Positions 1,926 to 18,793 of a DNA stretch of 52,813 nucleotides are shown here, piece after piece. The notes under the pieces were generated by a model. The model saw only the letters and a program-made list of their open reading frames with translations. It was not told the origin of the DNA and ran no database searches. Both the position numbers and the translations under genes were made by a program. The DNA is taken from positions 1 to 52,813 of the IMG/VR virus record IMGVR_UViG_3300037502_004181. One strand, written 5' to 3'. Source of the stretch: a virus. Taxonomy: Duplodnaviria; Caudoviricetes. The number at the start of each line of letters is the position of its first letter. Position 1 is the stretch's first letter.

Positions 1926-2201
1926 TTAATTTTCAATCGATAGCGGATACCTAGCCTTTATCTCAGAAACTTTATCTCTCCATATCTTCTCCGCTTCCGG
2001 CGTGCCATCGTATTGCCACTCAAGAAAAAGAGGGTCTGATTCTTCCCTGTACGCCTTCTGCCTTTTTTCATAGTTTTGTGATAATTCAAAATCCCTTTGG
2101 CGTATCACCGACTCGATTTGTTCAGAATCCATTCCCAGAGATTTCATGTATTCTTCTGTAAAATCTGTGTGTGTTTTTCCTTTAAATATGTAACTAAACA
2201 T
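1926..2201 (-). CDS. Small phage protein, putative tail-fibre assembly/chaperone (91 aa from ATG 2201)
   Basis: GGAGG RBS before ATG 2201, which overlaps the RT stop; RQKAYREESDPLFLEWQYD...WRDKVSEIKARYP resembles small proteins found after phage tail fibres; function inferred. Confidence 0.55.
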   Translation of the reverse strand: MFSYIFKGKTHTDFTEEYMKSLGMDSEQIESVIRQRDFELSQNYEKRQKAYREESDPLFLEWQYDGTPEAEKIWRDKVSEIKARYPLSIEN

Positions 2202-3471
2202 CTGTTTTCCTCCTGAATGGCTCAGCAAAAAGAGCCTTTTTAAGGTTGTAGGTGCTGGCGTGACCCGCATGGCCAAGCCATGATTGAATGTTCTGATTTA
2301 TATCAGAGAGACTTATCTCGCCTTTAGCGAACTGAGACCGATACTTTTTAAGTTTTGTCTTAATTCGCTTGACGCTGCATTTTCTCAGCAACCTATGGCT
2401 CGAATAAATTCGATACCCGAGAAAGTCCAAGCTCCTGCCGTTACTCGTTGAGATGGGGAAAACCTGCGTCTTGCTGTTCGTTTTTAATCTCAGGTAAAGG
2501 TGCAGAAATTCCTCTATATCCTTTCTCCACTGGTGCAGCACAGCCTTGTCGTGGTGAATGATGGCAAAATCGTCCATGTAGCGGATGTAGTGTTTTGCGC
2601 CAAGTGCGTGCTTTGCATATCTATCAAGCTCGTGCAGATACACGTTTGCAAAAATCTGACTGGTAAGGTTCCCCAGCGGAATGCCCACGCCCATTGATTC
2701 GCAAGGGCTGTTATCAATGATGTAAAACAGCAGTTCAAGCGTTCTCTGGCATTGTATTTTTGCCGCAAGGATAGACTTCAATACCTGGTGGTCTATGCTC
2801 GAAAAGTAACGGCTAATATCCGCTTTTAACGCATACGCCTTGCCATGCTTTGACTCCACCTTCTTAATAAAATATTGAGCCCTGTCAGCGCCTTTGTGGG
2901 TGCCTTTTCCTCGTCTACATGCGTATGAGTCATAGATGTAGGTTTTGTCAAACAGCGGCTCGATAACATTGTATATAGCCCGATGGACAACTCTGTCCTT
3001 AAAGTGCGGGGCTGATATCAGACGGCGCTTCGGCTCGAATACGTAAAAATGGTGATAGGGTGACATTTTATACATACCCCACATCAGCTCGTTTTGTATT
3101 TCTATAATGTTCTCTTCCAGATTATTGAAGAAAACTAGCGTTGCGTTCGCCTTTGTTTTTCCTTTTCGGCATGAGTATGCCGCCGATAAAAGATTCTCAA
3201 AATCAAATATCTTCTCGAATGAGCAGCCCAGTGACGCATCAATGGGCTTTATATCTGTTCCGGCTATGGCCGAGGAGGCGGCATCCTTTTCATGATTGCA
3301 CTGACAGCATCCCTTGGGATGGTTGTTTCTGGCTACATCAAGAGCGGGGCGAAAACCGATGTTACTGTTCGAGTTCGACCGCGCATTGTTCAGATTGAGC
3401 GCGCCCAGCCCGGCGTTCGAGCCATTGTTCCAGTTGCCCCCGCGAAGCGGGAACCGGTTCCGCGTATTCAT
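2194..3471 (-). CDS. DGR reverse transcriptase (bRT-like); ORF includes the TR in frame at its 5' end
   Basis: APHFKDRVVHRA, ACRRGKGTH, LKADISRYFSSIDH, GIPLGNLTSQIFANVYL (DGR-type SQ motif), RYMDD, DFLGY; no intron maturase or endonuclease extension. Confidence 0.95.
   Translation of the reverse strand: MNTRNRFPLRGGNWNNGSNAGLGALNLNNARSNSNSNIGFRPALDVARNNHPKGCCQCNHEKDAASSAIAGTDIKPIDASLGCSFEKIFDFENLLSAAYSCRKGKTKANATLVFFNNLEENIIEIQNELMWGMYKMSPYHHFYVFEPKRRLISAPHFKDRVVHRAIYNVIEPLFDKTYIYDSYACRRGKGTHKGADRAQYFIKKVESKHGKAYALKADISRYFSSIDHQVLKSILAAKIQCQRTLELLFYIIDNSPCESMGVGIPLGNLTSQIFANVYLHELDRYAKHALGAKHYIRYMDDFAIIHHDKAVLHQWRKDIEEFLHLYLRLKTNSKTQVFPISTSNGRSLDFLGYRIYSSHRLLRKCSVKRIKTKLKKYRSQFAKGEISLSDINQNIQSWLGHAGHASTYNLKKALFAEPFRRKTDV
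3343..3459 (-). repeat. DGR template repeat (TR), 117 bp
   Basis: Aligns without gaps to 3897-4013; holds 11 AAC/AAT codons and 24 adenines on the minus strand. Confidence 0.95.
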
Positions 3472-3824
3472 AATGCCGTCCCCTGTTGCTTGGCATTAAC
3501 GGAGCGTATCCAGCCGCCTATCATTTTTCCAAGCTCAACCAGTTGGCCGACCCATATTTCGTATCTCTTGATGTCGATATACCGCAAGTCCTTGGCGAGC
3601 CTGACTCGCCGTTTCAATATGGCAAGCTCGATATCTAAATCGGTCAGGGTCGTCTTCTTGTGGTATCGCTTAAATGCCGTGATGATCAATCTTTGAAGTT
3701 GCAGCATTGAAAGCCTGATTTCCGCGCCTAAAACATGGCGCTCATGTTTTGGAAATTGCTTTATTGCTTGATAGCCGTACATCATCATTTCCCGGCATTT
3801 TTCTTCAATGATTAGCGTTGTCAA
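3468..3824 (-). CDS. avd: DGR accessory variability determinant (Avd, four-helix bundle)
   Basis: Basic ~118 aa helical protein with FPKHERHVLGAEIR, LDIELAILK and ELGKMIGGWI motifs, between target and TR; GGAGG then TTG at 3824. Confidence 0.9.
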   Translation of the reverse strand: MTTLIIEEKCREMMMYGYQAIKQFPKHERHVLGAEIRLSMLQLQRLIITAFKRYHKKTTLTDLDIELAILKRRVRLAKDLRYIDIKRYEIWVGQLVELGKMIGGWIRSVNAKQQGTAL

Positions 3825-3845
3825 CTTGCCTCCGCACAACTAAAG

Positions 3846-3863
3846 GGCGCACTACCGTGCGCC
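3846..3863 (-). promoter_or_regulatory. DGR target-recognition hairpin/cruciform downstream of VR
   Basis: GGCGCAC-GGTA-GTGCGCC: perfect 7-bp stem with a GRNA tetraloop, 21 nt after the target stop codon. Confidence 0.8.
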
Positions 3864-3884
3864 ATCCAAAGAATCAGTTAACAG

Positions 3885-5255
3885 TTACACAAAGAAAGCG
3901 GGGCGAAAACCGATGCTACTGTGCGAGAACGACCGCGCAAAGTTCAGAATGAGCGCGCCCAGCCCGGCGCCCGAGCCATCGTGCCAGCCGCCCCCGCGAC
4001 GCGGGAACCGGTCACCATAGTTTCTAGTGTATAGCACCCCTCCAACAGTCTGGTCTGATGCAGTCTCTAGCAGCAGCTGTCTGAGCAGTTCAACAGGGGT
4101 ATAACCGGCCGATTTTTGCAGAATCTTGAATTCGACAGAGTTGCTATATCCAGAGTTTATGTCGTCACCGACATTACCCATGCGATTTGTCACTGTTGAA
4201 TTGAGGATAGGTGAGCCGCCGGTAGTTGAAGTTGAATCGTAATATGCTGTGTGACGGTTCCATCCAGCCTCTGTTAATGATGGGTTGTTATCCAGCGTTG
4301 TCAGGATTTGGCCGTCATCCAATTTCATCTGGTCAATCCATTCCCAGACGTTGCCGACCAGGTCGCAAATCCCAAACTCTGTATGATCATGGCTCCATGT
4401 TGATGGCCCCTTGCCGGTGCCTGTTGCCCCATTTCCACTGGTGTCGCCAGGTAGTCCGTTATCGGCGCGGCGAGCGGTTTCCCACTTAGCCTCATGGCTG
4501 CGGCCATAGTTCGTATTACCGCGAGGCACAGTGCCATTAGCCAGAGACCAGAGCGCAATGGCGGCCCACTCGTGAATCGACATAAGATGCCAATTGTCAC
4601 CCTTTTGTGTACAAAGCTGTTTTGCAGCGTCGTAGTTAACTGAGGTTCGCGGCTGATTGCCGCCGATAACGGCAGAGCCGCCCGCCGCCGATGATGCCAG
4701 ATATTTGCCGACAAGGATTTCGCCACGAGGCGCTCCGTTTGTGATGAATGCAGGATGCGTTCCGGTGCCAAGATTCAATGCCGGAAGATTTAGATCTTCA
4801 ACGTTGAACCTTGGTATCACACACATGATGTTGGGATTTCCCTGGGCATCATATACGACAGTGTTTCTTCCACCTGAATTTTGTTCGATCGACTTTCGAT
4901 AGCCATCCGTTGCGATAATAGTTAAGTTGCTGACGTTCTGGTTATAGTCAGTCTCAAGTGTGTTCAGCGCATCATCATAGTCATTTATCAGTTCGGATGC
5001 CTGGTCTGCCAATTTCTTGGTATAACCTTGGACAGGAATGATAGAGTACCCTTGGCCTGATTGAGAATTGCTTTTGTAACTCGGATAAATTGATAGTGCC
5101 GAATCACTGGCAATATTCGTTATCTCATAGGTCAGCCCATCAGGGCCAACGAATGCATCACCTACCCGGCTGTTTGCCACCCACGCAGTGCCGCTTCCTG
5201 TTACTGTGGTGGAACCATTGGTTACCGTTACTGTGCCTGTTCTATACCATGCCAT
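3885..5255 (-). CDS. DGR target: tail fibre/receptor-binding protein with C-terminal CLec (FGE-sulfatase-like, Mtd-like) domain
   Basis: N-terminal MAWYRTGTVTVTNGS fibre anchor; HPAF, WHLMSIHEWAA, GICDLVGNVWEW and RGGGW...IGFRPA motifs; VR in the last ~42 codons; follows J. Confidence 0.9.
   Translation of the reverse strand: MAWYRTGTVTVTNGSTTVTGSGTAWVANSRVGDAFVGPDGLTYEITNIASDSALSIYPSYKSNSQSGQGYSIIPVQGYTKKLADQASELINDYDDALNTLETDYNQNVSNLTIIATDGYRKSIEQNSGGRNTVVYDAQGNPNIMCVIPRFNVEDLNLPALNLGTGTHPAFITNGAPRGEILVGKYLASSAAGGSAVIGGNQPRTSVNYDAAKQLCTQKGDNWHLMSIHEWAAIALWSLANGTVPRGNTNYGRSHEAKWETARRADNGLPGDTSGNGATGTGKGPSTWSHDHTEFGICDLVGNVWEWIDQMKLDDGQILTTLDNNPSLTEAGWNRHTAYYDSTSTTGGSPILNSTVTNRMGNVGDDINSGYSNSVEFKILQKSAGYTPVELLRQLLLETASDQTVGGVLYTRNYGDRFPRRGGGWHDGSGAGLGALILNFARSFSHSSIGFRPAFFV
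3897..4013 (-). repeat. DGR variable repeat (VR), followed by IMH-like divergent 3' end
   Basis: 102/117 identical to TR; after the shared GGTTTTCGCCCCGCT, VR continues TTCTTTGTGTAA and TR continues CTTGATGTAGCC. Confidence 0.95.
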
Positions 5256-5267
5256 TTTTAGCCTCTA

Positions 5268-8200
5268 TTAAGTATTTTCTGTGGCGATTAGTGATAACCG
5301 CTGAGTTTTAAATGGGACGCTACCCGCGTTATAGGTCGTCACGCGAGCGCGGTAATAACGTGTTGCTGTTGTTTGGTCTGAGTCGGTAAAAGTGGCGCTA
5401 CCCGATAGGTTTGATGAGCCGATTCGGTCTGTTCCTTCTTGCGAAATTGTCCACGAACCACCGCATAAAATGGTTTGTACGACTGACCATGTTTTACCTA
5501 AATCTAGTGAGCGCTCTAATACGACAGTGCCGCTGGTTGAGCCGCTAGAAGATGTACCTGTTTGGTTTAAAAAGAATGAGCCGTGGCATTGCAGCGATAC
5601 GGCGATAGTGATGACGCCGCCTAAACTGCCGAACGTGGTTTCGACTGCTGCCGTTGAGCTGAGCTGAGATGATGTAACGGCATTTTTGTAGTCGCCAGTG
5701 GTGATGGCGCCACCGAAATAGGCGCTGCCATCTACTTTGCGGTATGACGTGGCATTAGCTTCGGTGCAGTTACTGATATCGCCCACATCAGGCCCAAACC
5801 ATTCCAAGAATTGATTGCTGCTACCAAACCCAATACCAAAGACCTGCAGCGAACTGCCAATACGTTGGATAATGGTTTTGTTATGAAGTGTTCCAATAAC
5901 GGCATTATTCATGTAGACCATGCCGTTCTGCACCACGAATGGTGACGTAACTGTGGTTGTTCCTGTGGTTTGATTGAGAATTGCAAATCTGTCAGCTAAA
6001 ACGAAAAAGTTAGACTGAAGGCCTGCAGAGCCGTTCTCATAGCTTAGCCCAAACCCTGAAGCATAGTATTTGCCATCAGCAGTGATATTCATGCTGACTT
6101 TCCACATTGCTTCGATATTGCCTTCAAGGTCTGCCTGAGCCTGAGACACTTGCTGAATCGCTGTGGTATTGTTGCCTACCGAGGATTGCAGCGTCGTTAT
6201 GTCCTGAGCAAGAGCGCTATCCGCATCAGCTCTGGCCGTAGCCTCAGACTGAATTGCGGCAGCGTTGTCTCCTACCGAGGATTGCAGCGTTGTTATGTCT
6301 TGGGCAAGAGCGCTATCCGCATCAGCTCTGGCTGTAGCCTCAGATTGAATCGCGGCTGCATTAGTTGATACGCCAATATTGGCCGCATCTGCGGCAGCTT
6401 GTGCCGCAGCAGCTGAAGCCTGAACAGTCGTTATGTTTTGAGCTAATGATTCATCAGCTGTAGTCCGAGCAGTACTTTCCTGCTGAATTGCTGCTGAGTT
6501 GTTTTTTGACTCTGCTGATATGGTAGTAATTTGACGCGCAAGCGCTTCATCCTCTGTTGCCCTGGCCTCCTGCTCTACGCGGATCGCAGCCTTTGACTTC
6601 CATCCGGAAAGAACATCAGCAAGGCGGCCATCGCCAGTGTCTTCCACCGTCGCCTGAACTGTATTTATTTTCCTGCTCAATACACTATCAGCATTGGCTC
6701 TGGCCGTAGCCTCAGACTGAATTGCGGCTGAGTTGTCTCCGACAGACGTTTGCAGCGTTGTTATGTCTTGCGCTAACGCACTATCAGCATTGGCACGGGC
6801 CGTAGCCTCAGACTGAATTGCGGCAGCGTTGTCTCCTACCGAGGATTGCAGCGTTGTTATGTCTTGGGCAAGAGCGCTATCCGCATCAGCTCTGGCTGTA
6901 GCCTCAGATTGAATCGCGGCTGCATTAGTTGATACGCCAATATTGGCCGCATCTGCGGCAGCTTGTGCCGCAGCAGCTGAAGCCTGAACAGTCGTTATGT
7001 TTTGAGCTAATGATTCATCAGCTGTAGTCCGAGCAATACTTTCCTGCTGAATCGCGGCTGAGTTGTTTTTTGACTCTGCTGATATTGTAGTAATTTGACG
7101 CGCAAGCGCTTCATCCTCTGTTGCCCTGGCCTCCTGCTCTACGCGGATCGCCGCTTTTGACTTCCAACCAGCAAGAACATCAGCAAGGCGGCCATCTCCA
7201 GTGTCATCATCGCGATAGGCGGCGATCATGGTGTCAGTGCGTGAAGTGTTGGCTTCTAGCTTGCCGTCAATCAAATCAACAGAGTTCTGAACATCTGTCA
7301 TTTGCGCCGTGAGTGCAGCTACCGCCTCACCAATACTGGCGTAATCACCTACATACTCCCAATAGTTGGTATCTGTTGGCAGAGTTCCAGCAGGAATGTT
7401 GTCCTGCTTTGCCCGGTATATTGATATACCTGTTCCGTCGTCGTAGGTGACGAATTCGCCGCTGTTATATACCGTTGAGGCGCTCCACTCTCCTGCCCCA
7501 GAAATGTCAGCCAGCTGCTGGTTTATACTGTCAATGTTTGCCTGGATCTGCGGTATTTTGTCTATTTCAATGTTTATGGAATCAAGGTTTGACTCAATTC
7601 CAGGTATTTTTTCTACCTCTATATTTATAGAGTCAAGGTTTGATTCGATTCCTGGTATTTTTTCAATGGGGTCAAGCAGACTCTGGGCCAGTTCGCTTTC
7701 TGATATCTGCCCAGTAAGGTAGTCGAGTATTGTGCCTGCATCTGATGATGATGCGCCCTGTACATAATCAGACCAGGGGCCAATGTTTCCTGTTCTATCG
7801 ACTATCCTGGCCCTGAACCAGAAGGCAATACCTGCTGCCAAACCGGTTATCGTGTGGTTGTCGAGTGGGTAAGCATACTGCCCAAGCAGAGCCTCATTGG
7901 CGCCATTGTTGTCAGTTGCATAGTTGATCTCGGTATAAAGCGTATCCTCAGACCCAGGTTGAAACGCCCACTTTAGGCCAATGCCAAATACCAATGAAGT
8001 GGCATTTAGGCTGGCAAGCGCAGGCGGTGACCCTGTTTTTCCTGTAATATCAGTAAGAACTGATGTTGCCGGTTTGGAGGATATGTCAGCAGCATTAACC
8101 GCGGTGACCCTGGCAATGTATTGGCCGGTGTACACTCCCCGCACATCAACGCTTCTTGTACCTGTTCTAGGCAGACGGATCCAGTCGCCAGAGTCTTTCC

Positions 8201-10208
8201 TCCACTCAACATCGTATGCCACGGCGTCCTCGGCTGCATCCCACTCTATTGTCATTACAGTCACAGACATCGTTTGCTCAATCAGCGTTTTTTGGCTGAT
8301 AACAACGTTGGTCGGTGGAGCCTGCACATTTGGCGGAATAACAGAAATAGGCCTGATATCTATCTGGGCGCCGTCATCAATGGCCTGGTGCTTTCCGGGC
8401 ACGCTGATAACCGCATTTATCTCATACTCGTGTTCTTCACTTCTTTTTATTGAAAGCACTCTGAACTGCATTACAGCGAGCTCGTCGGCGTCTACCGCCC
8501 AAACTGACTGAGCCTGAGGCACTTCTGAATAGTCAGCATCAACGGTAACTTGCGGTCCATTAACGGCGGTGATAGTTCGCCATTCGGCCTTGCCTGATGG
8601 CAAGTTTACAATCAGCCGGTTACCTACCGCTGCGGATGAGGTTTTATCCAGAGTGACTACGCTTGCAGTAGCAGAGCGGATCCTGCCGCCGTTAATTGCG
8701 CCCTGCAGCATTTCGTCTGCGACATTGATAATGTTGCCAGGGCGCGGAATTTGACCGTCAAGACCAACTCTGAAAGTTACCGTTCTTGTTTCAAGTTGCT
8801 CTGATTTAAGGGCCCACAGTCCGGCGCGCTGGGCCTGCCCTTCACTGGTGCAACCTATGGCCTCAACATCAAGCTGTGAAATGCCAAGAGTCACAGCTGA
8901 GTTGTCGAATACAACGGCTGTATCGTCCTTGAATGACTGTTCTGGGTTGCTCCAGCGCACGCTGGCAACACTGTGGCGATCACGCAGTGCGGTACCCTTG
9001 TACTCGAATATCCCGTCTATCACGTTGGCATTGGTGTATGTGTAGATTGGGTCTTCCGGCATGTCTGCCGTTACCATCATCTGCGAACCATCCCAGAAGC
9101 TGTTGCCGTGGAATATGCTCGTCAGTTGGTTTAGCAGCTGATAGGCCTGCCCCTGGTTCTGTATATACACGTTGCAGGTATAGCGCGGCTCTGTGCCTCC
9201 CTTGCCATCATCTACCATCACATCGCAATACTGGGCAATCTGGTACAGCTTCCACTTATTGACCATATTGGTATTGATGCGATTGCCAAGGCCAAAGCGC
9301 TTGTGAAGAACCAAGTCATACCAAACCCAAGCCGGGTTATTGGTGTACGCCTCTTTAAATGTTCCGTCCCAAACTCCGTTTGATGTTCCTGGGCCACTGG
9401 TTGCATAGGTTCTGGTCAGAGTATCGTAGTTAGCCGGCACCTTGATTATTCGCCCGCGGCAAAGCGCCGAGAACTTAGGAATATTGGAGAACTGCTCGGA
9501 ATCGTACTCAACTGCGATAAGTGCGGTGTGCGGGTATCTCAGCTTGGCATCAACCACCTCAGTGATTGAGTCAATTACCATCTTATCTTCTATCTTGAGT
9601 GATTCAGCGTTTGCCGTCAGCCTGCGCACTCTCACCTGCCAGCTGCTACCCTCTTGCGGCAAGTCAATTCTGTGGCTGCGCTCGTAACTCGACCCTGTTT
9701 TTCCATCAACGGCAGTATTGAGTACTTCAATAAAGCTGCCGCCATCGGTCGATACGTCAATGGCGTAGGCAATGCGATAGCCAACCAGGTCACCGTTATC
9801 CTTTTGTTCCAGAAGCCGTGGCCAGGCAAAGCGGATCCTGACAGCCGACAGCTGCGGATTGGTGAACTGGCGCACGAACGGGGTTCCGTAGCGCAGTTCT
9901 ACCCCAACAGACACCTCGTTGTTGGTTTCCGGGTACCCCTGAATATAGGTTTGATCAACAGTACCTGGGCGAAAGTCCACCTTAACGCCGTCAATATTCT
10001 CACCGCCGCCAGTGCTGCGAACCGGGGTGCCATCAAGCTTCACTGAGTTGTAGCCGTTTACCAGCCCTTCTATTTCGCCTTCACTGATGGCATATAGCAG
10101 TTTTGCGGTGGCGACAGAACGCAGCGTGTCAGGTGCTGTGTACGGCGTCTGAGAACCAGATCCACCAGATTTAGCGCCTTTTATTGGCTGCGCAGATTGC
10201 TGCATCAT
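5268..10208 (-). CDS. Tail tip / central fibre protein (lambda J-like)
   Basis: AISEGEIEG, LRYPHTAL, WDGTFKEAYTNNPAW, EPRYTCN, GCTSEGQAQRAGLW; Fn3-like region, coiled-coil repeats. Confidence 0.93.
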   Translation of the reverse strand: MMQQSAQPIKGAKSGGSGSQTPYTAPDTLRSVATAKLLYAISEGEIEGLVNGYNSVKLDGTPVRSTGGGENIDGVKVDFRPGTVDQTYIQGYPETNNEVSVGVELRYGTPFVRQFTNPQLSAVRIRFAWPRLLEQKDNGDLVGYRIAYAIDVSTDGGSFIEVLNTAVDGKTGSSYERSHRIDLPQEGSSWQVRVRRLTANAESLKIEDKMVIDSITEVVDAKLRYPHTALIAVEYDSEQFSNIPKFSALCRGRIIKVPANYDTLTRTYATSGPGTSNGVWDGTFKEAYTNNPAWVWYDLVLHKRFGLGNRINTNMVNKWKLYQIAQYCDVMVDDGKGGTEPRYTCNVYIQNQGQAYQLLNQLTSIFHGNSFWDGSQMMVTADMPEDPIYTYTNANVIDGIFEYKGTALRDRHSVASVRWSNPEQSFKDDTAVVFDNSAVTLGISQLDVEAIGCTSEGQAQRAGLWALKSEQLETRTVTFRVGLDGQIPRPGNIINVADEMLQGAINGGRIRSATASVVTLDKTSSAAVGNRLIVNLPSGKAEWRTITAVNGPQVTVDADYSEVPQAQSVWAVDADELAVMQFRVLSIKRSEEHEYEINAVISVPGKHQAIDDGAQIDIRPISVIPPNVQAPPTNVVISQKTLIEQTMSVTVMTIEWDAAEDAVAYDVEWRKDSGDWIRLPRTGTRSVDVRGVYTGQYIARVTAVNAADISSKPATSVLTDITGKTGSPPALASLNATSLVFGIGLKWAFQPGSEDTLYTEINYATDNNGANEALLGQYAYPLDNHTITGLAAGIAFWFRARIVDRTGNIGPWSDYVQGASSSDAGTILDYLTGQISESELAQSLLDPIEKIPGIESNLDSINIEVEKIPGIESNLDSINIEIDKIPQIQANIDSINQQLADISGAGEWSASTVYNSGEFVTYDDGTGISIYRAKQDNIPAGTLPTDTNYWEYVGDYASIGEAVAALTAQMTDVQNSVDLIDGKLEANTSRTDTMIAAYRDDDTGDGRLADVLAGWKSKAAIRVEQEARATEDEALARQITTISAESKNNSAAIQQESIARTTADESLAQNITTVQASAAAAQAAADAANIGVSTNAAAIQSEATARADADSALAQDITTLQSSVGDNAAAIQSEATARANADSALAQDITTLQTSVGDNSAAIQSEATARANADSVLSRKINTVQATVEDTGDGRLADVLSGWKSKAAIRVEQEARATEDEALARQITTISAESKNNSAAIQQESTARTTADESLAQNITTVQASAAAAQAAADAANIGVSTNAAAIQSEATARADADSALAQDITTLQSSVGDNAAAIQSEATARADADSALAQDITTLQSSVGNNTTAIQQVSQAQADLEGNIEAMWKVSMNITADGKYYASGFGLSYENGSAGLQSNFFVLADRFAILNQTTGTTTVTSPFVVQNGMVYMNNAVIGTLHNKTIIQRIGSSLQVFGIGFGSSNQFLEWFGPDVGDISNCTEANATSYRKVDGSAYFGGAITTGDYKNAVTSSQLSSTAAVETTFGSLGGVITIAVSLQCHGSFFLNQTGTSSSGSTSGTVVLERSLDLGKTWSVVQTILCGGSWTISQEGTDRIGSSNLSGSATFTDSDQTTATRYYRARVTTYNAGSVPFKTQRLSLIATENT
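6172..7205 (-). repeat. 564-bp-period internal duplication in J with nested 96-bp (32 aa) units
   Basis: DTGDGRLADVL(A/S)GWKSKAAIRVEQE... occurs twice 188 aa apart; NAAAIQSEATARADADSALAQDITTLQSSVGD unit recurs. Confidence 0.9.
7512..7665 (-). repeat. Three 51-bp (17 aa) tandem repeats in J
   Basis: EKIPGIESNLDSINIEV / EKIPGIESNLDSINIEI / DKIPQIQANIDSINQQL; ggtatttt at 7552, 7603 and 7654. Confidence 0.85.
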
Positions 10209-10234
10209 GGGGTAACGTCTCCCGACATTTAGGT

Positions 10235-10262
10235 ACAAAAAAACCGCTTTCGCGGCCGTTGT
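10235..10262 (-). terminator. Intrinsic terminator, 28-bp exact repeat copy 1
   Basis: acaaaaaaaccgctttcgcggccgttgt, identical to 16034-16061; minus strand CCGC-GAAA-GCGG then T7. Confidence 0.7.
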
Positions 10263-10264
10263 GT

Positions 10265-10804
10265 TTAGTTCTTTATTTCAACCAAAGGCAGGCTGAACTG
10301 CCCTTCTTGCTCAATCTTCTCTATTCTTGCCAGTAACTCGGGTTTCTTTACCCGGCCCCAGCGGTTAAGCAATCGGCCTGACATGCTGGCAACATCGCTC
10401 TCTTTCATATACTCAAGCATCAAAGCGTTGCGCTCTGCCTCGTAGTTGCGGCTTAGTTTTTGTAACTCTTCCGTCATCCAGTTAAAGGCATTTATGTATG
10501 CCTCTTTTACTGATGCAGCCTTGGCGCCATTAAATCCCATGACCACCATGACAAATCCACTGAAGTCCATGCGATAGAACCTTTGCTTTTTGTCAAATAT
10601 TCCTAAGTCATTGATTTTCTCGGAGGCCCAAAAGTGGGCCCTAAAGAAATCATCGGAGCACTTAAGGTTTTCAACCGCTCTGACAACATGTTGATGACGC
10701 TTTCCGAACGCGCTTGCTATTTGCACTGTATCTGTGGCTGGCGCCCCATTAGCCGCAGTCACAAGATCGCGAAAATCAAACGCAGTTTTTACTTGGCAAG
10801 TCAT
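10265..10804 (-). CDS. Rha-family phage regulatory protein
   Basis: IASAFGKRHQHVVRAVENL and YRMDFSGFVMVVMGFNGAKAASVKEAYINAFNWM; AGGAG RBS before ATG 10804. Confidence 0.85.
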   Translation of the reverse strand: MTCQVKTAFDFRDLVTAANGAPATDTVQIASAFGKRHQHVVRAVENLKCSDDFFRAHFWASEKINDLGIFDKKQRFYRMDFSGFVMVVMGFNGAKAASVKEAYINAFNWMTEELQKLSRNYEAERNALMLEYMKESDVASMSGRLLNRWGRVKKPELLARIEKIEQEGQFSLPLVEIKN

Positions 10805-10813
10805 GGCAAAACT

Positions 10814-10922
10814 CCTATAGAGAACGAGCCTGGTAGCACAGAGATTCCAGCCCCCAGAGATAACTGGATCTCTCAGGCTCATTCTCTATAGGCTCTGGTT
10901 TTATAGCGCGTGCTACGGCGCG
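10814..10922 (-). ncRNA. Putative structured leader RNA upstream of rha
   Basis: 19-bp stem (10814-10832/10874-10892), inner 10-bp stem, and a 7-nt bulge complementary to an upstream hairpin loop. Confidence 0.5.
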
Positions 10923-10935
10923 GTGAATTTCAGGC

Positions 10936-11063
10936 ACAAAAAAGCCCCGGCAGATGCCAGGGCTCAGAAACGAAAAAACCGCCAGAGTTTGGCGGCTTTG
11001 TTGGTAGTACTACTTTTCTTCCATCATTAGGGCGATTTAATCACCTACTATCTAAAATTGCAA
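10936..11063 (-). promoter_or_regulatory. Second pR'-like promoter followed by two tandem terminators
   Basis: TTGCAA-18-TAAATC-GCCCT-AATGATGG, then GCCGCC..GGCGG-T6-CGTTTCTG and GCCCTGG..CCGGGGC-T6; same layout as 30953-31080. Confidence 0.6.
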
Positions 11064-11069
11064 CAGTGG

Positions 11070-11846
11070 CTAATGCTGGAAGCCGATCAACCCGCTCATC
11101 TGCTCGAGTTCATTTTTCACTGTTGATGAAAATGACATGCCAGCGAGAACGTGATCACGCAGTTCGGCACCAATGGGTGAGCGCATCTGCCGCAATGCAG
11201 GTTCCAGCTCAGAGATCCACGTTTTGTATATCCGCTGCCAGTGGTGAAATGATCCATTGGCACTATGCACCAGCATCCGCATGTCGTCGCTTCCTCGCGG
11301 CAACAGCTCGCCTTCAAGGGCTAGCTTGTGCACATACTCAATCGCTTCAGTTAACTGATTCTTGTCGAGTTGATCCAGATGTTCAACGTTAAAGCGCTGG
11401 TGAACCATGGCGTAAGCATCTGGATACATTAAGCCTTTCTTCGACACCAACAGGTTAACCGCGTTGCGCAAACCTGTGCGATCGTCAGTGGTGGTCTTTT
11501 GACGAGAGGCTCCACTTAGCTGTTCGGCCATCCAATTAAAAGCATTGATATATGCTTCCTTGATCGCAGCAGCCTTCTTGCCTGTGAACCCCATGACCAA
11601 GAACATGAAGCCGTCCTTTGTCATCTGCCACATCGGTAATTTTCGCCCTGTAGAATCAAGGTATCCACTGGGCGTAAAATTGCGCTCAGTAAAATCAGTC
11701 GAGCAATCTAACGCTTGCAAGCGGCGTAAAACATCTTTGTGTTGCTTGCCAAAAGCTTCCGCAACATTAATAGACGTAGTTATTAATGCGCCATCTTGAG
11801 CGCATACTAGGTGATTTAATGATTGAACGGTGGTAATATTCTTCAT
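11070..11846 (-). CDS. Antirepressor-like protein: Rha domain plus P22 Ant C-terminal-like domain
   Basis: TTSINVAEAFGKQHKDVLR, MTKDGFMFLVMGFTGKKAAAIKEAYINAF, and TGLRNAVNLLVSKKGLMYPDAYAMVHQRFNVEHLDQL. Confidence 0.8.
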   Translation of the reverse strand: MKNITTVQSLNHLVCAQDGALITTSINVAEAFGKQHKDVLRRLQALDCSTDFTERNFTPSGYLDSTGRKLPMWQMTKDGFMFLVMGFTGKKAAAIKEAYINAFNWMAEQLSGASRQKTTTDDRTGLRNAVNLLVSKKGLMYPDAYAMVHQRFNVEHLDQLDKNQLTEAIEYVHKLALEGELLPRGSDDMRMLVHSANGSFHHWQRIYKTWISELEPALRQMRSPIGAELRDHVLAGMSFSSTVKNELEQMSGLIGFQH

Positions 11847-11916
11847 GTCAGTTTTCTCGTTGTTAACTGGTAAACCAGAAACCTCGTTGGTGCCAGCCTC
11901 CGGGGTTTCGCCGTTT

Positions 11917-12078
11917 TTACGCCTTGATATACCCATCCTCCCTAAGGCTCCTCTCAATTCGTTTAATCACCTCTTTGTTTAGAGACCGCCCCTCTTCTTT
12001 CGCAACGCTTTTCAACAACCCCTTAAGTTGATCAGGAAATCTGATGCCAGTTGGCGGTATATCACGAACATTCTTCAT
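11917..12078 (-). CDS. Arc-like ribbon-helix-helix repressor, 53 aa (below the ORF-track cut-off)
   Basis: My translation: MKNVRDIPPTGIRFPDQLKGLLKSVAKEEGRSLNKEVIKRIERSLREDGYIKA; GGAG RBS; same length and pattern as P22 Arc. Confidence 0.85.
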   Translation of the reverse strand: MKNVRDIPPTGIRFPDQLKGLLKSVAKEEGRSLNKEVIKRIERSLREDGYIKA

Positions 12079-12093
12079 ACCATACTCCATAGT

Positions 12094-12141
12094 TACATGC
12101 TGTAGTCATTGAAATACTACATGCTGTAGCTATTAAGTCAA
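12094..12141. promoter_or_regulatory. Arc/Mnt operator pair and Pant-like promoter
   Basis: tacatgctgtag at 12094 and 12118 (CTACA-N3-TGTAG dyad); minus-strand TTGACT-16-TAGTAT. Confidence 0.6.
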
Positions 12142-12159
12142 GGCGTAAATGGCTACATT

Positions 12160-12456
12160 ATGAAATCATTTGCTAAGAATGAGTTTGTTATGAAAGGTGC
12201 TAGTAACATCGCGCCGTTTGGCTTGCGAATGCCAGAAGGCGTAAAAAGCCATATTGCTGAAATGGCAAAGGTACATGGGCGTTCTATGAACGCTGAAATA
12301 GTCTATAGGCTAGAGACTACAATCAAAAAAGAAGACGTTATCTGCCACAAACTAAACCTTCACAAGATACAGAACCCAGCAATAGCTGAGTTAGAGGCGA
12401 TCAAGGAGCAGATTGAGCGGGCCATAGAGAGACTAAAGGAAACTTCGCCGGGTTAA
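12160..12456 (+). CDS. Mnt/Arc-family DNA-binding protein
   Basis: [33 protein letters not shown]; divergent from arc; start may be 12190. Confidence 0.85.
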
Positions 12457-12575
12457 TACTGAATAGCCAACCGTTCAGCTTGCGCAGTGGGATGCATAAA
12501 ACTTCTCGAATTTTGCTATCGGAAGCAACCATATTCATATGAATACAGTTGAATTTTCAACAACCAAGGACGTAG

Positions 12576-13007
12576 ATGATGAAGAAAGTAGCTTTAATCG
12601 CCGCCATGGCTTTGGCTGGGTGTGCAACTTCTCCAGTACCCATAGAACAGGCTCAAATTGCACCGCAGAACAAACTCCTGGCTTATCAAAACAAATCAGC
12701 AGTGAACAATTCTACTATTATTGTAGTTCGTGACTCTGGATTGTTTGGTGTTGGATGCGCACTTGCGGTGTACGTTGACGGAAAAAAGTCAGCCTTTCTC
12801 GATGCTGGCGAAAAAGCAGTTTTTTATGTTCCAGCAGGAACCCATAATGTTGGTGTTGGATCTTCAGAAAACGGCCTTTGCTCTGGAATGGTCATCAGAA
12901 ACCTGTCGGCAACAACTATCCCTGGAGTTCCGCAGAACTTTCGGATTAGCATGGACGGAAGTGGATTGTATTTCACTCCATATTTTATAAATGAAGGCGA
13001 GCTTTAG
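12576..13007 (+). CDS. Moron lipoprotein
   Basis: Signal peptide with lipobox LAGC; antisense to the tail operon. Confidence 0.75.
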   Translation: MMKKVALIAAMALAGCATSPVPIEQAQIAPQNKLLAYQNKSAVNNSTIIVVRDSGLFGVGCALAVYVDGKKSAFLDAGEKAVFYVPAGTHNVGVGSSENGLCSGMVIRNLSATTIPGVPQNFRISMDGSGLYFTPYFINEGEL

Positions 13008-16000
13008 CGGTTCCTGTCTAATAAGCCCATCGGGCGCTGTTCCTCGATGATTATCTTGCGAACAGCGTTCCCTATCATTACCCCAAGCTGTTTATAGTCT
13101 GCTTGAGGATCCCCACTTACTGTTGTTTCACCTGACTCGGCATCAATATTGACGCTTATGTAAACGTCTCCTTTCCCTCCACCAGCAGCCTGCTTCAAAA
13201 TGTCAGCAGTTGTTTGCCTGCTTGTCACATTGGCACCAGATACAATCTCAGGGCCGTACTCGCCAACGATCCCCCATTTGTTTGATGGAATACTCCCGCC
13301 ATTATCAAACATGCCAGCAAATGCAGATGACGATATCATTGTCACAAGAGGTGTCGTAGCAGCTATTGCAGCCGTAGCTGCGGCAGGTGCTGCTGCTGGA
13401 CCATAGACAGGAATTGCTGCTGTAGAGGAATAAGCGTTCAGGGCAGCCATTTGCTGAGTCGCCAAAGCATTAGCAACCATCCCCTGGCCAGCCATAGTCT
13501 GCGTAGTCTTTCCGACTAGAAGCTGAACGGCTTGGTAAACCAGCCACTGAGCAGCTATATCACTCAAGGCTTGCAACATCGATGAAGCAAATCCTTTAGC
13601 CATGTTCTGAAGAGAATCGCCAATTGATTGCGTTCCTGATGCCAATTCATAAAGATTGCTACTGATCGCTGACGTGGTTTCACTCAACACATCAGCGGTA
13701 GCATTCTGTACGTTCTGGTATATATTCGCTGCACTATCGGCATAATTTTGCAATGCCTCTCTTGAGCCGGTTATCCAACTCTGTTCTGCTGCTGCTTTTT
13801 GTAAAGCAGCTTGGCGAATGATCTCTATCTGCCTGCTTTCCTCATACTGAATATTTGCCAGTCTTTGCTGGTATGCCTCCTGGCTGATCCGTGTTGACTC
13901 AGATTGCTGATCCCGCTGCAGCTTCAGAACGGCATCCTTGGCCTGCTGCCTGATAATCAGTTCCTGCTCTTGCTGTTGGCGAAACTTATCTCCCATGCCC
14001 ATGCCGGTTATTGATAAGTTTTGTCGTTCCTGGAATACAGCGAGCTTCCTCTGGATTGCTGCGTATTCTTCTGCAGCTGCCTTTTGTTGTAAAAGCGCGT
14101 CCTTGGCCTGCTTGCGGCGATGGATTTCATCAACCAGTAGCTCAGCTTCTATTTTTTGCTGATCACTTAGGTTTGATGAAGCTATGGCCGCTTTTATCTT
14201 TTCGCTATTGTACTGCTCAAGCTGCTGCTTGTTCAGGGTTACAGCTGCGTATTGATCCTGCAGCTTGTCAATGAGGCTCTGAGTTGCACGGTCAAGCTGT
14301 GTTGTTGTGGTAGTTACCGTGTTACCTGCGCTATCCACGCCAGCCAGCGCATCTTTCAGCTTTTGCAGATCATCCTCTGCTTTTTGAAGCTGTTGAGATA
14401 ATTCTGAATAGGCTTTCGACCTTTCTGCATTCGCTTTACGTTCTGCCGCCCTATTCTCTTCCGTACTGGATAAAAGCCGCTTGCCGGCAGAAACCACCCC
14501 ATCTAGATAATCGCCGACACTGTCATATTGGGTGATCCTGTCAAATCGAACATCCTTGATTTGCTCTTTGAGGTTGGCGATAGCATCTGTTTGCTTTGTG
14601 ATAGCTTCGCTAAGCTGTTTTTTTCTGAGTTGATCCATTCGGCCAAGAAGGCTATCAATCTCATCGCTAAGCCCGGCAGTTTTCTGTTGTGAGTCCTGCG
14701 CTGAGGTAGCCCAGTAAGTCAGAGCTGCTGCGCCAAGAAAAACCAAACCTGCAGGGCCGCCGACGAGAGACATTGCTCCGTTAAATGCCCTGGTAGCAAT
14801 TGTGGCTTGGTTGGTTACAGCTGCCAAATTGGTGCGAGCTGCTGCGAGGCGCTGATCTGCGACTATTGCCTGGCCAGCAGTAAGCACTGATGCCCTTTTT
14901 GCCGTGGCAAGTCTGAGCTCTGCCTCTGCTGCAGCCACGGCCGCCATGCGCTCACGCTCTTTGGAAACAGCGTTGCGTATGGTTTCAATAGTGTTTGAGG
15001 TGAGGACGCCAGCATAGCGACTGAAAGCTGCTACGGCCGTTACCCCCACCATGGTAACCAGAGTGTCAAAGTTGTTTGATAGTCCGTTTATCCCATCAAC
15101 CATCTTTGCAGTGATGCCATAGACCTTATTCTGCTGACCGACGTATTCGGATATGGTGTTATTCATTTTGGTGAAAGCATCACGCACTGTGGTTGGCATT
15201 TTCTCCACTTGCTCGATGATCCGCCCATAATCCTCAGCCAGCGCTTTTGCCAGTTCTGCCCCGGTTATCTTACCTTCTGCACCAAGCTTTCGGAGTTCCT
15301 GTGCTGATTTACCGGTACTCTTTGCCAACGAATCAACAATCGTGTCGGCCGTACTGTAGATAGTGATCCAGGCATCGGCATCAACTTTGCCTTTTTGCAT
15401 TGACTTGGCCAGCGCCTGAATGGCTGCCGCGCCCCTCTCGGCATTGGCGCCGTTAACAACCAGCAACCCAGAAAAGGCATCCACGGCGTCTATTGACTGT
15501 GACAGTGTTAGGCCCATGTCACGCAACACTGGTGACAGGTTAATAAATGACTCTTTTGTCTCGTTGATACTCCGGAAGGTGTCTGCTGATGATTGCAGGA
15601 GGCGTTCGTTTACATAGGTGTACTCTTCAGTGCTTCTGATTGCTCCCCTTATGCGGGTGTCATACTGGCCCCATTGGTCTGCTATATCGATGATCTGCAT
15701 CGTGCTGATGCCTGCAAATGCGCCAATGAGCGTTCTTCTCATAGTGGCCGCAGCCGATGCCGCAGCAGAGTCAGTCTCTTTGAGTGACTTGTTGATCCGG
15801 TCTACACCTGACGCGCCGTTTTTTGCCTTTGAACCGGCCTCACCCATTGCGCTACCGGCGTTTTTGCTGCTGCTTGATACCTTGCTGTTGGTGTTGGTCA
15901 GTCTTACTCCGGCGCGCTCAAGCAGCTCAAGGGACTTCTGCATATCTTCGGCGCGCTGTTCAGCGGTGCGGCTGTCAATGGTAATCGACAGTCTTGATTC

Positions 16001-16009
16001 GTATGCCAT
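13004..16009 (-). CDS. Tail tape measure protein
   Basis: 1001 aa, Ala-rich and helical; tape-measure N-domain (ALAKSMQKGKV, LRKLGAEGKITG), ends IEEQRPMGLL. Confidence 0.9.
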   Translation of the reverse strand: MAYESRLSITIDSRTAEQRAEDMQKSLELLERAGVRLTNTNSKVSSSSKNAGSAMGEAGSKAKNGASGVDRINKSLKETDSAAASAAATMRRTLIGAFAGISTMQIIDIADQWGQYDTRIRGAIRSTEEYTYVNERLLQSSADTFRSINETKESFINLSPVLRDMGLTLSQSIDAVDAFSGLLVVNGANAERGAAAIQALAKSMQKGKVDADAWITIYSTADTIVDSLAKSTGKSAQELRKLGAEGKITGAELAKALAEDYGRIIEQVEKMPTTVRDAFTKMNNTISEYVGQQNKVYGITAKMVDGINGLSNNFDTLVTMVGVTAVAAFSRYAGVLTSNTIETIRNAVSKERERMAAVAAAEAELRLATAKRASVLTAGQAIVADQRLAAARTNLAAVTNQATIATRAFNGAMSLVGGPAGLVFLGAAALTYWATSAQDSQQKTAGLSDEIDSLLGRMDQLRKKQLSEAITKQTDAIANLKEQIKDVRFDRITQYDSVGDYLDGVVSAGKRLLSSTEENRAAERKANAERSKAYSELSQQLQKAEDDLQKLKDALAGVDSAGNTVTTTTTQLDRATQSLIDKLQDQYAAVTLNKQQLEQYNSEKIKAAIASSNLSDQQKIEAELLVDEIHRRKQAKDALLQQKAAAEEYAAIQRKLAVFQERQNLSITGMGMGDKFRQQQEQELIIRQQAKDAVLKLQRDQQSESTRISQEAYQQRLANIQYEESRQIEIIRQAALQKAAAEQSWITGSREALQNYADSAANIYQNVQNATADVLSETTSAISSNLYELASGTQSIGDSLQNMAKGFASSMLQALSDIAAQWLVYQAVQLLVGKTTQTMAGQGMVANALATQQMAALNAYSSTAAIPVYGPAAAPAAATAAIAATTPLVTMISSSAFAGMFDNGGSIPSNKWGIVGEYGPEIVSGANVTSRQTTADILKQAAGGGKGDVYISVNIDAESGETTVSGDPQADYKQLGVMIGNAVRKIIIEEQRPMGLLDRNR

Positions 16010-16033
16010 GACTGGGCTCCGTAAATTCCAGGC

Positions 16034-16061
16034 ACAAAAAAACCGCTTTCGCGGCCGTTGT
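16034..16061 (-). terminator. Intrinsic terminator, 28-bp exact repeat copy 2
   Basis: Identical to 10235-10262. Confidence 0.7.
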
Positions 16062-16082
16062 ATTTGGATTGATGAATAGGGG

Positions 16083-16271
16083 TTACATTTTCAGGGCAGT
16101 GATGATTTCTGCAAGATTGAACATCAGTGGCGCAGACGCTACCAGCAGCACCGAGAGCGCCACAATAACCACTGCAAACCCAATACATTTGCGGATCCAC
16201 TTGTCTGTGACTAATTCCATCTTCAAACCTCTTTTGGGATGAATTTCTACTTTTGACTTGCTATCATTCAT
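16083..16271 (-). CDS. Small single-pass membrane protein (moron)
   Basis: AGGAG RBS; hydrophobic stretch IGFAVVIVALSVLLVASAPLMF. Confidence 0.6.
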   Translation of the reverse strand: MNDSKSKVEIHPKRGLKMELVTDKWIRKCIGFAVVIVALSVLLVASAPLMFNLAEIITALKM

Positions 16272-16305
16272 TTATGCTTTGCTCCTAGTGTGGATAGGGG
16301 TAAAT

Positions 16306-16345
16306 GCAAAAAACCCCGAATGTTCGCCGCATTCGGGGTTTTGCT
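16306..16345. terminator. Bidirectional hairpin terminator
   Basis: aaaaccccgaatg-ttcgccg-cattcggggtttt. Confidence 0.7.
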
Positions 16346-16368
16346 TTTGGGATAAGTTAATTTGTTTT

Positions 16369-16953
16369 TTAGGCTTGGTCTTCTGTGTAGATGCCGCCTG
16401 ATAACACAGCTCCACCAACTTCAAACTCGCCATAAAGCAAGGGCACAGGGTGCCCGGCTGACGTTGTAGTTACCGGGCCGCCAAAGCCTGTGCTTGGATT
16501 GTTGCCATCCTCCTCGCCTGTTCCAGTAGTTTTTGGCATCGGAGAAAGCATTTGCACTACGCCGCCAAGTGCGACACCAAGGCCAGCAGCAATCAATCCA
16601 ACACCGTAGGCAGATGTGGTCCCAAATGTGAAATACCCCACGACCACCAGAACCACGCCAAGGATTACCTGAAACACACCTCCTTGTTTGCTTCCCTTGA
16701 TAATCGGCGCAATGCGGATCACCTCATCCTCGGTGCCACTGAATATCAGCTCGTCCTCAGATAGGTTTCGTTTGCCACTGAATACGGCAAACACCAACCC
16801 TTTTTGGTCTGCGGTTCTCATGAACTGCTCGAACCCTGGAACCATGTTGCACAGGGCCTGAACGGCATCTGCCGGCGAGTTGCAATCCAGTCGATATTCT
16901 CTGCCGAACTTGGAGCCCAGAACGCCATAAAGGCGGATAGTACGCATTCCCAT
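16369..16953 (-). CDS. Tail assembly protein (lambda I-like)
   Basis: MRTIRLYGVLGSKFGR, IRIAPIIKGSK, GHPVPLLYGE. Confidence 0.9.
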   Translation of the reverse strand: MGMRTIRLYGVLGSKFGREYRLDCNSPADAVQALCNMVPGFEQFMRTADQKGLVFAVFSGKRNLSEDELIFSGTEDEVIRIAPIIKGSKQGGVFQVILGVVLVVVGYFTFGTTSAYGVGLIAAGLGVALGGVVQMLSPMPKTTGTGEEDGNNPSTGFGGPVTTTSAGHPVPLLYGEFEVGGAVLSGGIYTEDQA

Positions 16954-16960
16954 GGTTACC

Positions 16961-17740: not shown

Positions 17741-17744
17741 GGTT

Positions 17745-18443: not shown

Positions 18444-18793
18444 GGCTGGAAGGTCTCCTGCATGGTCCAGGTGATTGTTGTTTTACCGTTCTGGGAGTCG
18501 TTGGCCGTTGAGTAGTTCTCAGCCCTGAACAGGCCAATATCACCGCCCGGCGTTGTCCAATAGAATGACTGATAGCCCTGACGGGCCTTGAGGAAGTCGA
18601 GCACTGGCTTGATGTTTGGCGTGCGGATCCCGTCAACAAACCCTGAAACAGAAACGCTCCAACTGGTTGAGCGGTTGTTGATTCCTACACCAAACGCCTG
18701 GGTGTAGCCGTCACCAAATTCGTTTTTGAGAACCTTGTGCGTAGTTTCGCCGGTGGCTCCGACGTTTACAGGCCAGATGAATGTTTCAGTCAT
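18440..18793 (-). CDS. Minor tail protein M-like (distal tail)
   Basis: ETFIWP, FGDGYTQAFGVGINN, SFYWTTP. Confidence 0.88.
   Translation of the reverse strand: MTETFIWPVNVGATGETTHKVLKNEFGDGYTQAFGVGINNRSTSWSVSVSGFVDGIRTPNIKPVLDFLKARQGYQSFYWTTPGGDIGLFRAENYSTANDSQNGKTTITWTMQETFQP

Follow-up and report, generated by a model that had tools for sequence, protein, structure and literature searches.

The viral record IMGVR_UViG_3300037502_004181 (Caudoviricetes; all 52,813 nt were analysed and are called the window below) carries on its minus strand a complete diversity-generating retroelement (DGR), confirmed at the sequence level by a reverse transcriptase (RT), Avd, a template repeat (TR) and a variable repeat (VR) at the C-terminus of a target protein. 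We judge, with a probability of roughly 0.87, that it is a canonical DGR of the clade of the Vibrio phages VHML and VP58.5, that it lies next to the phage attachment site and that it acts on a trimeric side fibre, which stands beside the central tail fibre J and alters what the phage adsorbs to. From about 1940 to 4947 the window is 88–91% identical in DNA to the DGRs of these two phages; this identity, an RT extended at its N-terminus by the translated TR, and a conserved small open reading frame (ORF) after it mark the element as a VHML-type cassette.

TR and VR aligned without gaps over 117 nt (minus strand, TR from 3459 to 3343 and VR from 4013 to 3897) and are the only copies of the repeat in the 52.8-kb record. 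They differ at 15 positions: A>G seven times, A>T five times, A>C twice and T>G once, at repeat index 13. Adenines occupy 24 of the 117 TR positions, and 14 of the 15 mismatches fall on them, all 14 in AAC or AAT (AAY) codons; the hypergeometric probability of at least 14 of 15 mismatches at adenines is 5.8e-11. Our realignment returned the same counts as an earlier note on this DNA, whose figure of about 3e14 possible variants (4^24) became 2.8e14 when recomputed. At the protein level the diversity is 9.2e12, or 1.4e14 counting codon 0, with 15 residues allowed at each of 10–11 AAY codons and four each at one AGT and one ATC codon. Because repeat index 0 is A in TR and G in the VRs of the window and of eight of eight close relatives, and because the relatives' VR flanks upstream of it are unrelated to TR, this position probably lies just outside the homology. 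Without it the pair is 116 nt long, in agreement with a repeat search, and 13 of 14 mismatches are at adenines (P = 2.6e-10).

The genes follow one another in a minus-strand operon in the order J, target, avd, a single ORF that joins TR, spacer and RT, and the small ORF (Table 1). In the RT ORF, about 43 codons at the start hold TR (codons 5–43), a spacer of about 40 codons follows and the RT domain comes last. The motif LGNLTSQ (2656–2676, aa 266–272) fits the (I/V/L)GxxxSQ signature in domain 4 that sets DGR RTs apart (PMC3521204, PMC7826257), and the YxDD catalytic box is intact as YMDD (2569–2580, aa 298–301), the assignment being by motif rather than by RT phylogeny. The RT ATG at 3471 is preceded by AGGGGA and overlaps the avd stop as ATGA; both this overlap and the open frame through TR are conserved in all clade members examined. 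An internal start after the spacer was ruled out in the window, where no in-frame ATG, GTG or TTG occurs before codon 130, unlike in the related locus L012, which has an ATG at that position. Avd matched Pfam bAvd (4.5e-31) and the NCBIfam equivalog NF033474 DivGenRetAVD (108.6 bits; the cut-off is 80). The small ORF begins with an ATG at 2201 that is preceded by GGAGGA and overlaps the last RT codons, and it stands immediately after the RT in 20 of 22 related loci; the two misses are truncated loci. Pfam, NCBIfam and PHROGs gave no function for it, and Atlas gave a weak lead to XkdW (0.90).

Beyond VR stands a GC-rich hairpin (33 nt downstream of the VR end; −11.3 kcal/mol, z = −2.4), which a terminator scan also picked up. 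The conserved DGR target-site hairpin is described as a GC stem of 7–10 bp with a GRNA loop, 4–34 bp from VR, in Guo et al. 2011, where the legend of Fig. 5 includes VHML; the window's hairpin agrees with this description in stem, loop and distance. The cassette thus combines adenine-confined TR/VR differences, DGR-type RT motifs, Avd, a VR at the 3′ end of the target with its hairpin, and a target of C-type-lectin (CLec) fold. The earlier note had called the DGR complete, with RT, avd and target all open, and this stands: RT motifs, Avd family, repeats and hairpin are all present, and 2194–3471, 3468–3839 and 3885–5255 contain neither stop nor frameshift.

Retrohoming in this element can be sketched from work on the family, chiefly on BPP-1. 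The transcript of avd, TR, spacer and RT would be bound by RT–Avd, and cDNA would be made from TR with random nucleotides placed opposite adenines. This cDNA would replace VR, beginning at the site where mutagenic homing is initiated (IMH) near the hairpin, presumably the adenine-free, GC-rich 3′ end of VR (TCGGTTTTCGCCCCGCT), and ending at a variable upstream crossover. Randomizing the 10–11 AAY codons and the AGT and ATC codons would yield about 1e13 protein variants on an exposed ligand-binding face, VR covering the last 39 residues of the lectin domain (aa 415–453). The target would most likely be a trimeric side fibre mounted beside J, and its rewriting would change the surface structure that is bound.

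Table 1. Coordinates of the DGR cassette and adjoining features in the window
Feature	Position	Strand	Description
Prophage left end, approximate	1730		L010 and L011 99% identical to the window down to 1730
Small ORF	1926–2201	minus	91 aa; phrog_5714 (function unknown), 3.7e-32
DGR reverse transcriptase ORF	2194–3471	minus	425 aa; RVT_1, 1.1e-19 (Pfam)
Structured spacer RNA	3225–3344	minus	resembles Rfam RT-14 (RF02921), full-model coverage
Template repeat (TR)	3343–3459; homology proper 3343–3458	minus	24 A: 11 AAY codons, AGT and ATC
avd	3468–3839	minus	123-aa ORF (program-made), family match from aa 9
Target-site hairpin or cruciform	3846–3863	minus	7-bp GC-rich stem GGCGCAC/GTGCGCC, 4-nt loop GGTA (= GRNA)
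DGR target	3885–5255	minus	456 aa; starts 12 nt after the J stop, behind a GAGG motif
Variable repeat (VR)	3897–4013	minus	target aa 415–453; stop codon 9 nt beyond the repeat
Target anchor	4947–5255 (aa 1–103)	minus	siphovirus tail-fibre N-terminus
J-like central tail fibre	5268–10238	minus	1656 aa; stop 12 nt before the target ATG

The target protein and its place beside J

Homology searches show the target to be chimeric, with a siphovirus fibre anchor joined to a C-type-lectin domain like that of TaqVP, a DGR variable protein of a Thermus aquaticus prophage. Its first ~105 residues shared 47–55% identity with the N-terminal ends of tail-fibre proteins from Pseudomonas siphoviruses (47 records, among them phiPSA1, Medea1, Cruim01 and vB_Pae-series phages of about 38 kb) and also matched several tail-fibre PHROGs; in Cruim01 the anchor-bearing gene lies downstream of a J-like gene. 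Similarity to VP58.5 and VHML breaks at 4946/4947, which is target residue 103 and falls inside a single long helix (aa 77–126 in an AlphaFold2 (AF2) model). Pfam returned no N-terminal family on the target at E ≤ 0.01, the Stf N-terminal domain included, and side-fibre behaviour is put forward by analogy only.

From about residue 115 to residue 456 the target is a CLec domain of the formylglycine-generating enzyme (FGE) type (Pfam FGE-sulfatase, 4.7e-8). Searched against the PDB, a profile of 44 target homologues aligned with TaqVP (5VF4) at E 1e-78 and about 35% identity, with the VR segment inside the alignment, and Foldseek with the AF2 model also placed 5VF4 first (E 5.5e-21, TM-score 0.54–0.65). 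The predicted local distance difference test (pLDDT) score of the model is 25 in VR, so the CLec assignment is built on homology to 5VF4 and not on the model; of the structure prediction that the earlier note had proposed for the C-terminus, the CLec fold was borne out through this homology, whereas the model could not place the variable residues. In TaqVP the variable residues are described as solvent-exposed and as a putative binding site, and by analogy those of the window's target would be exposed on a ligand-binding face.

Structure prediction supports a trimeric fibre. The predicted homotrimer of residues 1–135 reached an ipSAE of 0.83, against 0.28 for the best of three controls, with contacts agreeing between runs by at least 71% and pLDDT of at least 76; in calibration, carried out with two copies and not three, 20 of 30 solved homo-pairs attained the mark, as did 1 of 23 single chains.

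The tail to which this fibre would belong is lambda-like, as the earlier note had held, with homologues of M, L, K, I and J (phrog_14, phrog_18, phrog_30 and phrog_32). Its further claim of a CLec-fold fibre carried in addition to J agrees with the 12-nt spacing from J, the fibre-type N-terminus and the homology to TaqVP. J itself shows FNIII-A_GpJ (6.4e-48), Phage-tail_3 (2.4e-19) and, at aa 1360–1462, Phage_Tail_Tip (9e-26). Since a tip domain is retained in J itself, the DGR fibre could serve as an accessory adhesin rather than as the sole determinant of host range.

Carried further, this becomes an alternative that we hold to be a real, if lesser, possibility: the tip of J would be the essential and fixed receptor binder, and the side fibre would tune a reversible first adsorption, with no tropism switch of the BPP-1 type. 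The intact J agrees with it, and so does the position of the target, since in lambda the side-fibre gene likewise follows J and Stf acts in the first, reversible adsorption. The anchor, too, recurs in fibres of other siphoviruses whose genes lie downstream of J-like genes. Against it, the Pseudoalteromonas phages ACA1 and ACA2, whose differences lie mainly in VR, have different species of that genus as hosts (PMC10612066), and in BPP-1 the DGR target is described as setting tropism. We keep the view that the fibre most likely changes the adsorption target and infer, with the earlier note, that the phage 'varies its receptor specificity'.

Past transfer in the lineage and the remaining alternatives

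The earlier note had proposed comparing VRs among related prophages, and this comparison had a positive outcome. Across nine close elements (the window, VP58.5, VHML and the related loci L005, L006, L007, L008, L018 and L025), TRs varied at five columns only, whereas VRs differed pairwise at 11–20 of 116 nt and no two were alike. TR adenines accounted for 105 of the 112 TR/VR mismatches and for 22 of the 26 variable VR columns. The window's RT protein is 100% identical to that of several relatives whose VRs all differ. The closest siphovirus-type target proteins, P0001–P0003, differ from that of the window in 3.6–5.3% of residues outside VR and 23–28% inside it, and 8–10 of the 9–11 VR differences are at codons with a TR adenine.

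Two elements also show the direction of transfer, with comparative support only. L018 has a C>T change in TR and the same change in its VR. In the window, index 5, the one base at which its TR differs from those of the eight relatives, is G in TR and VR alike and A in the eight other TRs; since the G is present in VR too, transfer took place after the TR change arose. At index 13 a point mutation was ruled out as the source of the T>G difference, the same G occurring in the VRs of the window, L005, L007, L012 and L022. We infer that this G is an old VR base, retained whenever the upstream crossover of the cDNA falls 3′ of it; in BPP-1 work the upstream junction of cDNA integration is variable. 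Near-identical elements with differing VRs are thereby available, in which index 13 would record where the crossover fell. The comparison indicates that the lineage is, or recently was, active, the mechanism having apparently operated repeatedly and recently, while current activity in this lysogen is not shown.

Two loci depart from the invariance of TR. The TR of L008 (6564–6680) carries three A>G changes (indices 43, 69 and 70), and its VR has A at two of these positions, so that L008 may be a metagenome assembly mix of TR and VR. In L009 the 'TR' (325–441), near the contig start, has 19 VR-type differences, which suggests assembly collapse. Either that, or TR is occasionally overwritten in such elements.

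It is unlikely that the cassette of this prophage is an intact-looking relic whose VR was set in an ancestor and which no longer undergoes retrohoming. Four public sequencing runs checked over 2100–5400 are stored as contigs, with rare variants dropped. In run X1, possibly the source sample, one contig over 3796–5400 had no differences from the window and thus a single VR, as a relic would, although contigs of this kind cannot settle the matter; the contigs listed for runs X2 and X4 are interrupted around VR and depth there is uneven, which strain mixtures or the TR/VR repeat explain equally. The A>G at index 5, private to the window's TR, also fits a relic. Its presence in VR as well speaks against one, as do the identical RT of relatives whose VRs all differ, the undamaged frames of RT, avd and target, and the conservation of TR, hairpin and spacer.

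That the target is no virion fibre at all and instead a surface protein of the lysogen, an enzyme of the FGE/SUMF1 type or a superinfection factor seems very improbable to us. Homologues are indeed named 'SUMF1/EgtB/PvdO family nonheme iron enzyme', the Pfam match is to FGE-sulfatase and, according to the ACA authors, most DGR targets in general are cellular proteins (PMC10612066). In the same PDB profile search, however, EgtB scored 0.0018 against 1e-78 for the DGR variable protein 5VF4, the N-terminus matches tail-fibre families, the gene sits in the tail operon directly after J, and in the myovirus relatives the target lies between fibre-base and sheath genes. An ordinary duplication followed by random mutation or selection, without reverse transcription, would explain the 116-nt direct repeat itself and is refuted by the adenine bias, which recurs independently in eight relatives, by invariant TRs beside hypervariable VRs and by the DGR-type RT and Avd encoded between and beside the repeats.

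Several observations nevertheless pull against the view of an active DGR that rewrites a trimeric virion fibre. Seven of the 112 mismatches lie off TR adenines (index-13 T>G three times, a single change apiece in L006 and L007, and a further two in L008), and the activity data for this lysogen are comparative throughout. TaqVP is described as a monomer, and the AF2 model of the target is mediocre (mean pLDDT 63.9) and unusable in VR. With Phage_Tail_Tip retained in J, the DGR fibre need not set host range alone. In ACA1 the antireceptor has high spectrum counts of the prophage variety, with cellular contamination mentioned by its authors (PMC10612066). Finally, the match of the spacer to RF02921 stays under the gathering score of 48.1 in the window (37.4), L012 (40.6) and L015 (35.6).

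A structured spacer within the RT reading frame

The RF02921 model aligned to the window's spacer with 37.4 bits (E 0.014 over 5.4 kb, 0.0011 over 401 nt), and two other clade members, L012 and L015, matched RT-14 at the same place. RNAalifold on eight clade members gave 34 pairs in several hairpins, six of them with compensatory changes. Because the spacer lies directly 3′ of TR, is covered by the full model and has six covarying pairs, the data indicate a divergent relative of RT-14 with an RT-14-like role, family membership not being established; it is presumably the counterpart of the 'Sp' region of BPP-1. In a distant DGR, L027 (RT 46% identical), RF02921 passed its threshold with 49.6 bits directly after TR (L027 6704–6856). 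RT-14 thus sits between TR and RT in two unrelated DGR clades and therefore probably serves DGRs as a spacer RNA, in the way that RT-10 does in BPP-1. Weinberg et al. 2017 located RT-10 in the TR–RT spacer of BPP-1 and speculated on other RT motifs for other DGRs; RT-14, an orphan Rfam motif known from the vicinity of RT genes, would now find its place in the TR–RT spacer of DGRs.

The same spacer has the look of coding sequence as well. A comparison of five clade members gave 70, 73 and 145 substitutions at the first, second and third codon positions of the spacer, with an excess at the third, and 186, 92 and 564 in the RT body, counts that are pairwise and not independent. A TR inside the RT ORF is itself an already known feature: the DiGReF survey describes a class of DGRs with TR overlapping the RT ORF (PMC3521204), and in the ACA phages TR forms an N-terminal RT extension, there called uncommon (PMC10612066).

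One doubtful consequence of this layout is a built-in switch for the rate of rewriting. With TR and the RT-14-like spacer inside the translated RT frame and coupled to avd by ATGA, translation and cDNA synthesis would be mutually exclusive, because ribosomes making RT would melt the RNA on which RT–Avd templates. The cassette, with its small fourth ORF, would on this speculative account be a self-contained 'receptor diversifier', independent of tail type and moved between contractile and non-contractile tails through recombination inside the fibre helix. The RT would then carry a 40-residue copy of the C-terminal strands of the lectin.

The host phage and relation to known systems

By its gene content and flank, the host of the cassette appears to be a lambda-like temperate siphovirus of about 51 kb in Shewanella algae. 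The left flank (1–1335) is a dGTPase gene whose 90%-identity cluster has 104 members, with S. algae in all 15 members listed; S. algae records name this gene 'anti-phage deoxyguanosine triphosphatase', which places the prophage beside a defence gene. The closest target homologue (95% identity) also comes from S. algae, and S. algae isolate genomes with the prophage were seen as protein matches P0001 and P0004 only. In the related loci L010 and L011 the sequence continues, about 92 nt past 1730, into window position 52813 at the integrase end, and these loci represent this phage in its circular or attP form. The joint (L010 1591–1681, L011 1544–1634) recurs in two independent viral contigs, its core not being delimited without attB or attR. 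By this joint, the DGR is the last module before the attachment site. No tRNA gene was found in the window, and no Rfam family matched in 1336–1730.

Further genes encode an integrase, an S24 repressor, a lambda-P-like replication protein, a Dam methylase and terminase, portal, head, terminator and chaperone proteins; the tail genes include a tape measure (phrog_339), its chaperone (phrog_313) and a major tail protein that matches phrog_290 (annotated 'minor tail protein') and has an immunoglobulin-like C-terminus. No VP58.5-type sheath gene flanks the cassette, unlike in the myovirus loci, the window's ORFs not having been scanned exhaustively. Megablast of 4900–24900 against 50,697 phage records gave no match, and the backbone thus seems to have no close sequenced relative in that collection.

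Tail gene order is atypical in that a tape-measure-like gene follows I. It belongs to a 5.8-kb block (10231–16065) between I (16369–16953) and J that holds a 1001-aa tape-measure-like gene (13004–16009), a plus-strand lipoprotein gene (12576–13007) and two Rha/antirepressor genes (10265–11957), and that is bounded by a terminator-like 36-nt direct repeat (10231–10266 and 16030–16065, 94%). The usual tape-measure place, from the chaperone (19101–19529) to M (18440–18793), has no such gene; in a related provirus, G001, gene I adjoins J and the window's tape-measure protein has no match. Either a genuine rearrangement or an assembly error at the repeat could account for the block. J contains an internal duplication of 300 nt (6153–6452 and 6717–7016, 92% identity) and shorter 20-nt repeats. 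The repeated units that these encode are rich in alanine and glutamine and resemble coiled coils, which suggests that the shaft of the central fibre has expanded.

VHML (NC_004456) and VP58.5 (NC_027981), of the genus Vhmlvirus, share with the window the gene order, the small ORF, RT, TR, avd, VR and the C-terminal ~350 residues of the target. Their TR is 1 nt from that of the window, the hairpin flanking VR is identical, and the VP58.5 annotation likewise reads TR as the N-terminus of the RT ORF; VP58.5 gp21, VHML ORF38 and ACA1 gp45 are counterparts of the small ORF. Both, however, are P2-like myoviruses of Vibrio, in which the target is preceded by a short fibre-base protein encoded separately and a sheath gene comes next, whereas the window's phage is lambda-like, is hosted by Shewanella and has its target after J. 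The window's target differs in its own fused anchor (the first 103 residues) and in an internal segment (aa ~335–400) of another type.

We classed 24 clade elements by their flanking genes: 22 loci with RT at least 76% identical, VP58.5 and VHML. P2-type fibre-base, baseplate or sheath genes accompany 17 of them, the target of the myovirus relatives lying after the fibre-base gene and before the sheath gene; five have a lambda-type context and two are too short to class. In L018 and L025 the lambda-type context is a J-like gene together with the anchor of the window; in L010, L011 and L009 it is an integrase that follows the small ORF. In homologues from Proteus mirabilis and Providencia (P0005, P0007) the VHML-type helix and lectin stand on a third anchor of about 165 aa. 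By sequence comparison the same target core is found on at least three anchors, and this third kind makes anchor swapping appear common. A search of genome contigs with the RT found no relative above 83% identity. A metagenome scan with the N-terminal 202 residues of the target gave 36 loci, none close (best 67% on the shared part), and anchor-only relatives in it reached at most 64%, except a 27-aa fragment at 81%; the scan thus added no further VR of the same phage.

One DGR cassette thus serves contractile P2-like and non-contractile lambda-like tails with only the first ~100 target residues exchanged, and the junction of anchor and lectin is a natural 'plug' point for receptor-binding modules. 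For S. algae this predicts a prophage able to drift quickly in adsorption specificity. Understanding of how DGRs work is unchanged. Published work already covers this kind of element and its clade, TR within the RT ORF, the presence of a fourth ORF, the hairpin, and transfer as a module with fused targets; modestly new are the setting in a siphovirus, where the target with its fused anchor comes directly after J, the placing of RT-14 among DGR spacers and the index-13 crossover marker. A limited literature search found no description of a VHML-type cassette in a lambda-like or S. algae prophage. Large metagenome surveys of DGRs may well list this IMG/VR contig. The earlier note had read the element correctly throughout; the close relation to VHML, a phage that Guo et al. 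2011 list among those with DGRs, and to VP58.5, which it had missed, lowers the novelty.

The DGR module of ACA1 and ACA2 is about 71% identical in DNA to that of the window. It is described as comprising an antireceptor, avd, TR as an N-terminal RT extension and a following protein of unknown function, as moving as a unit and as related to Vhmlvirus (PMC10612066). As described, ACA1 and ACA2 are P2-like myoviruses in which the baseplate-binding part is a separate polypeptide, whereas in the window the anchor is fused and the tail non-contractile. Transfer with a fused target has a precedent in the kappa prophage of V. cholerae HE-09 (DiGReF, PMC3521204), where likewise a minimal unit of RT, avd, TR, VR and part of the target moved by recombination inside the target ORF; that DGR is of a different, BPP-1-like clade and its recipient a different phage.

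TaqVP is homologous to the window's target over aa ~115–456 and, as described, shares the FGE-type CLec fold and the AAY, AGT and ATC variable codons; it is a single-domain protein of 381 aa with nine variable codons, whereas the window's target has an added anchor and helix and 12–13 variable codons. With BPP-1 (mtd-avd-TR-brt) the window shares, according to published accounts, the order target, avd, TR, RT, adenine-specific differences, a receptor-binding protein of CLec fold that has VR at its C-terminus, a GC-rich hairpin after VR whose loop is GRNA and a structured TR–RT spacer, there RT-10. Their sequence relationship is distant. The BPP-1 RT starts after the spacer, whereas in the window the RT ORF takes in both TR and spacer; the window's spacer is RT-14-like and not RT-10, a fourth small ORF is conserved, and its anchor and helix are unlike the trimerizing domains of Mtd.

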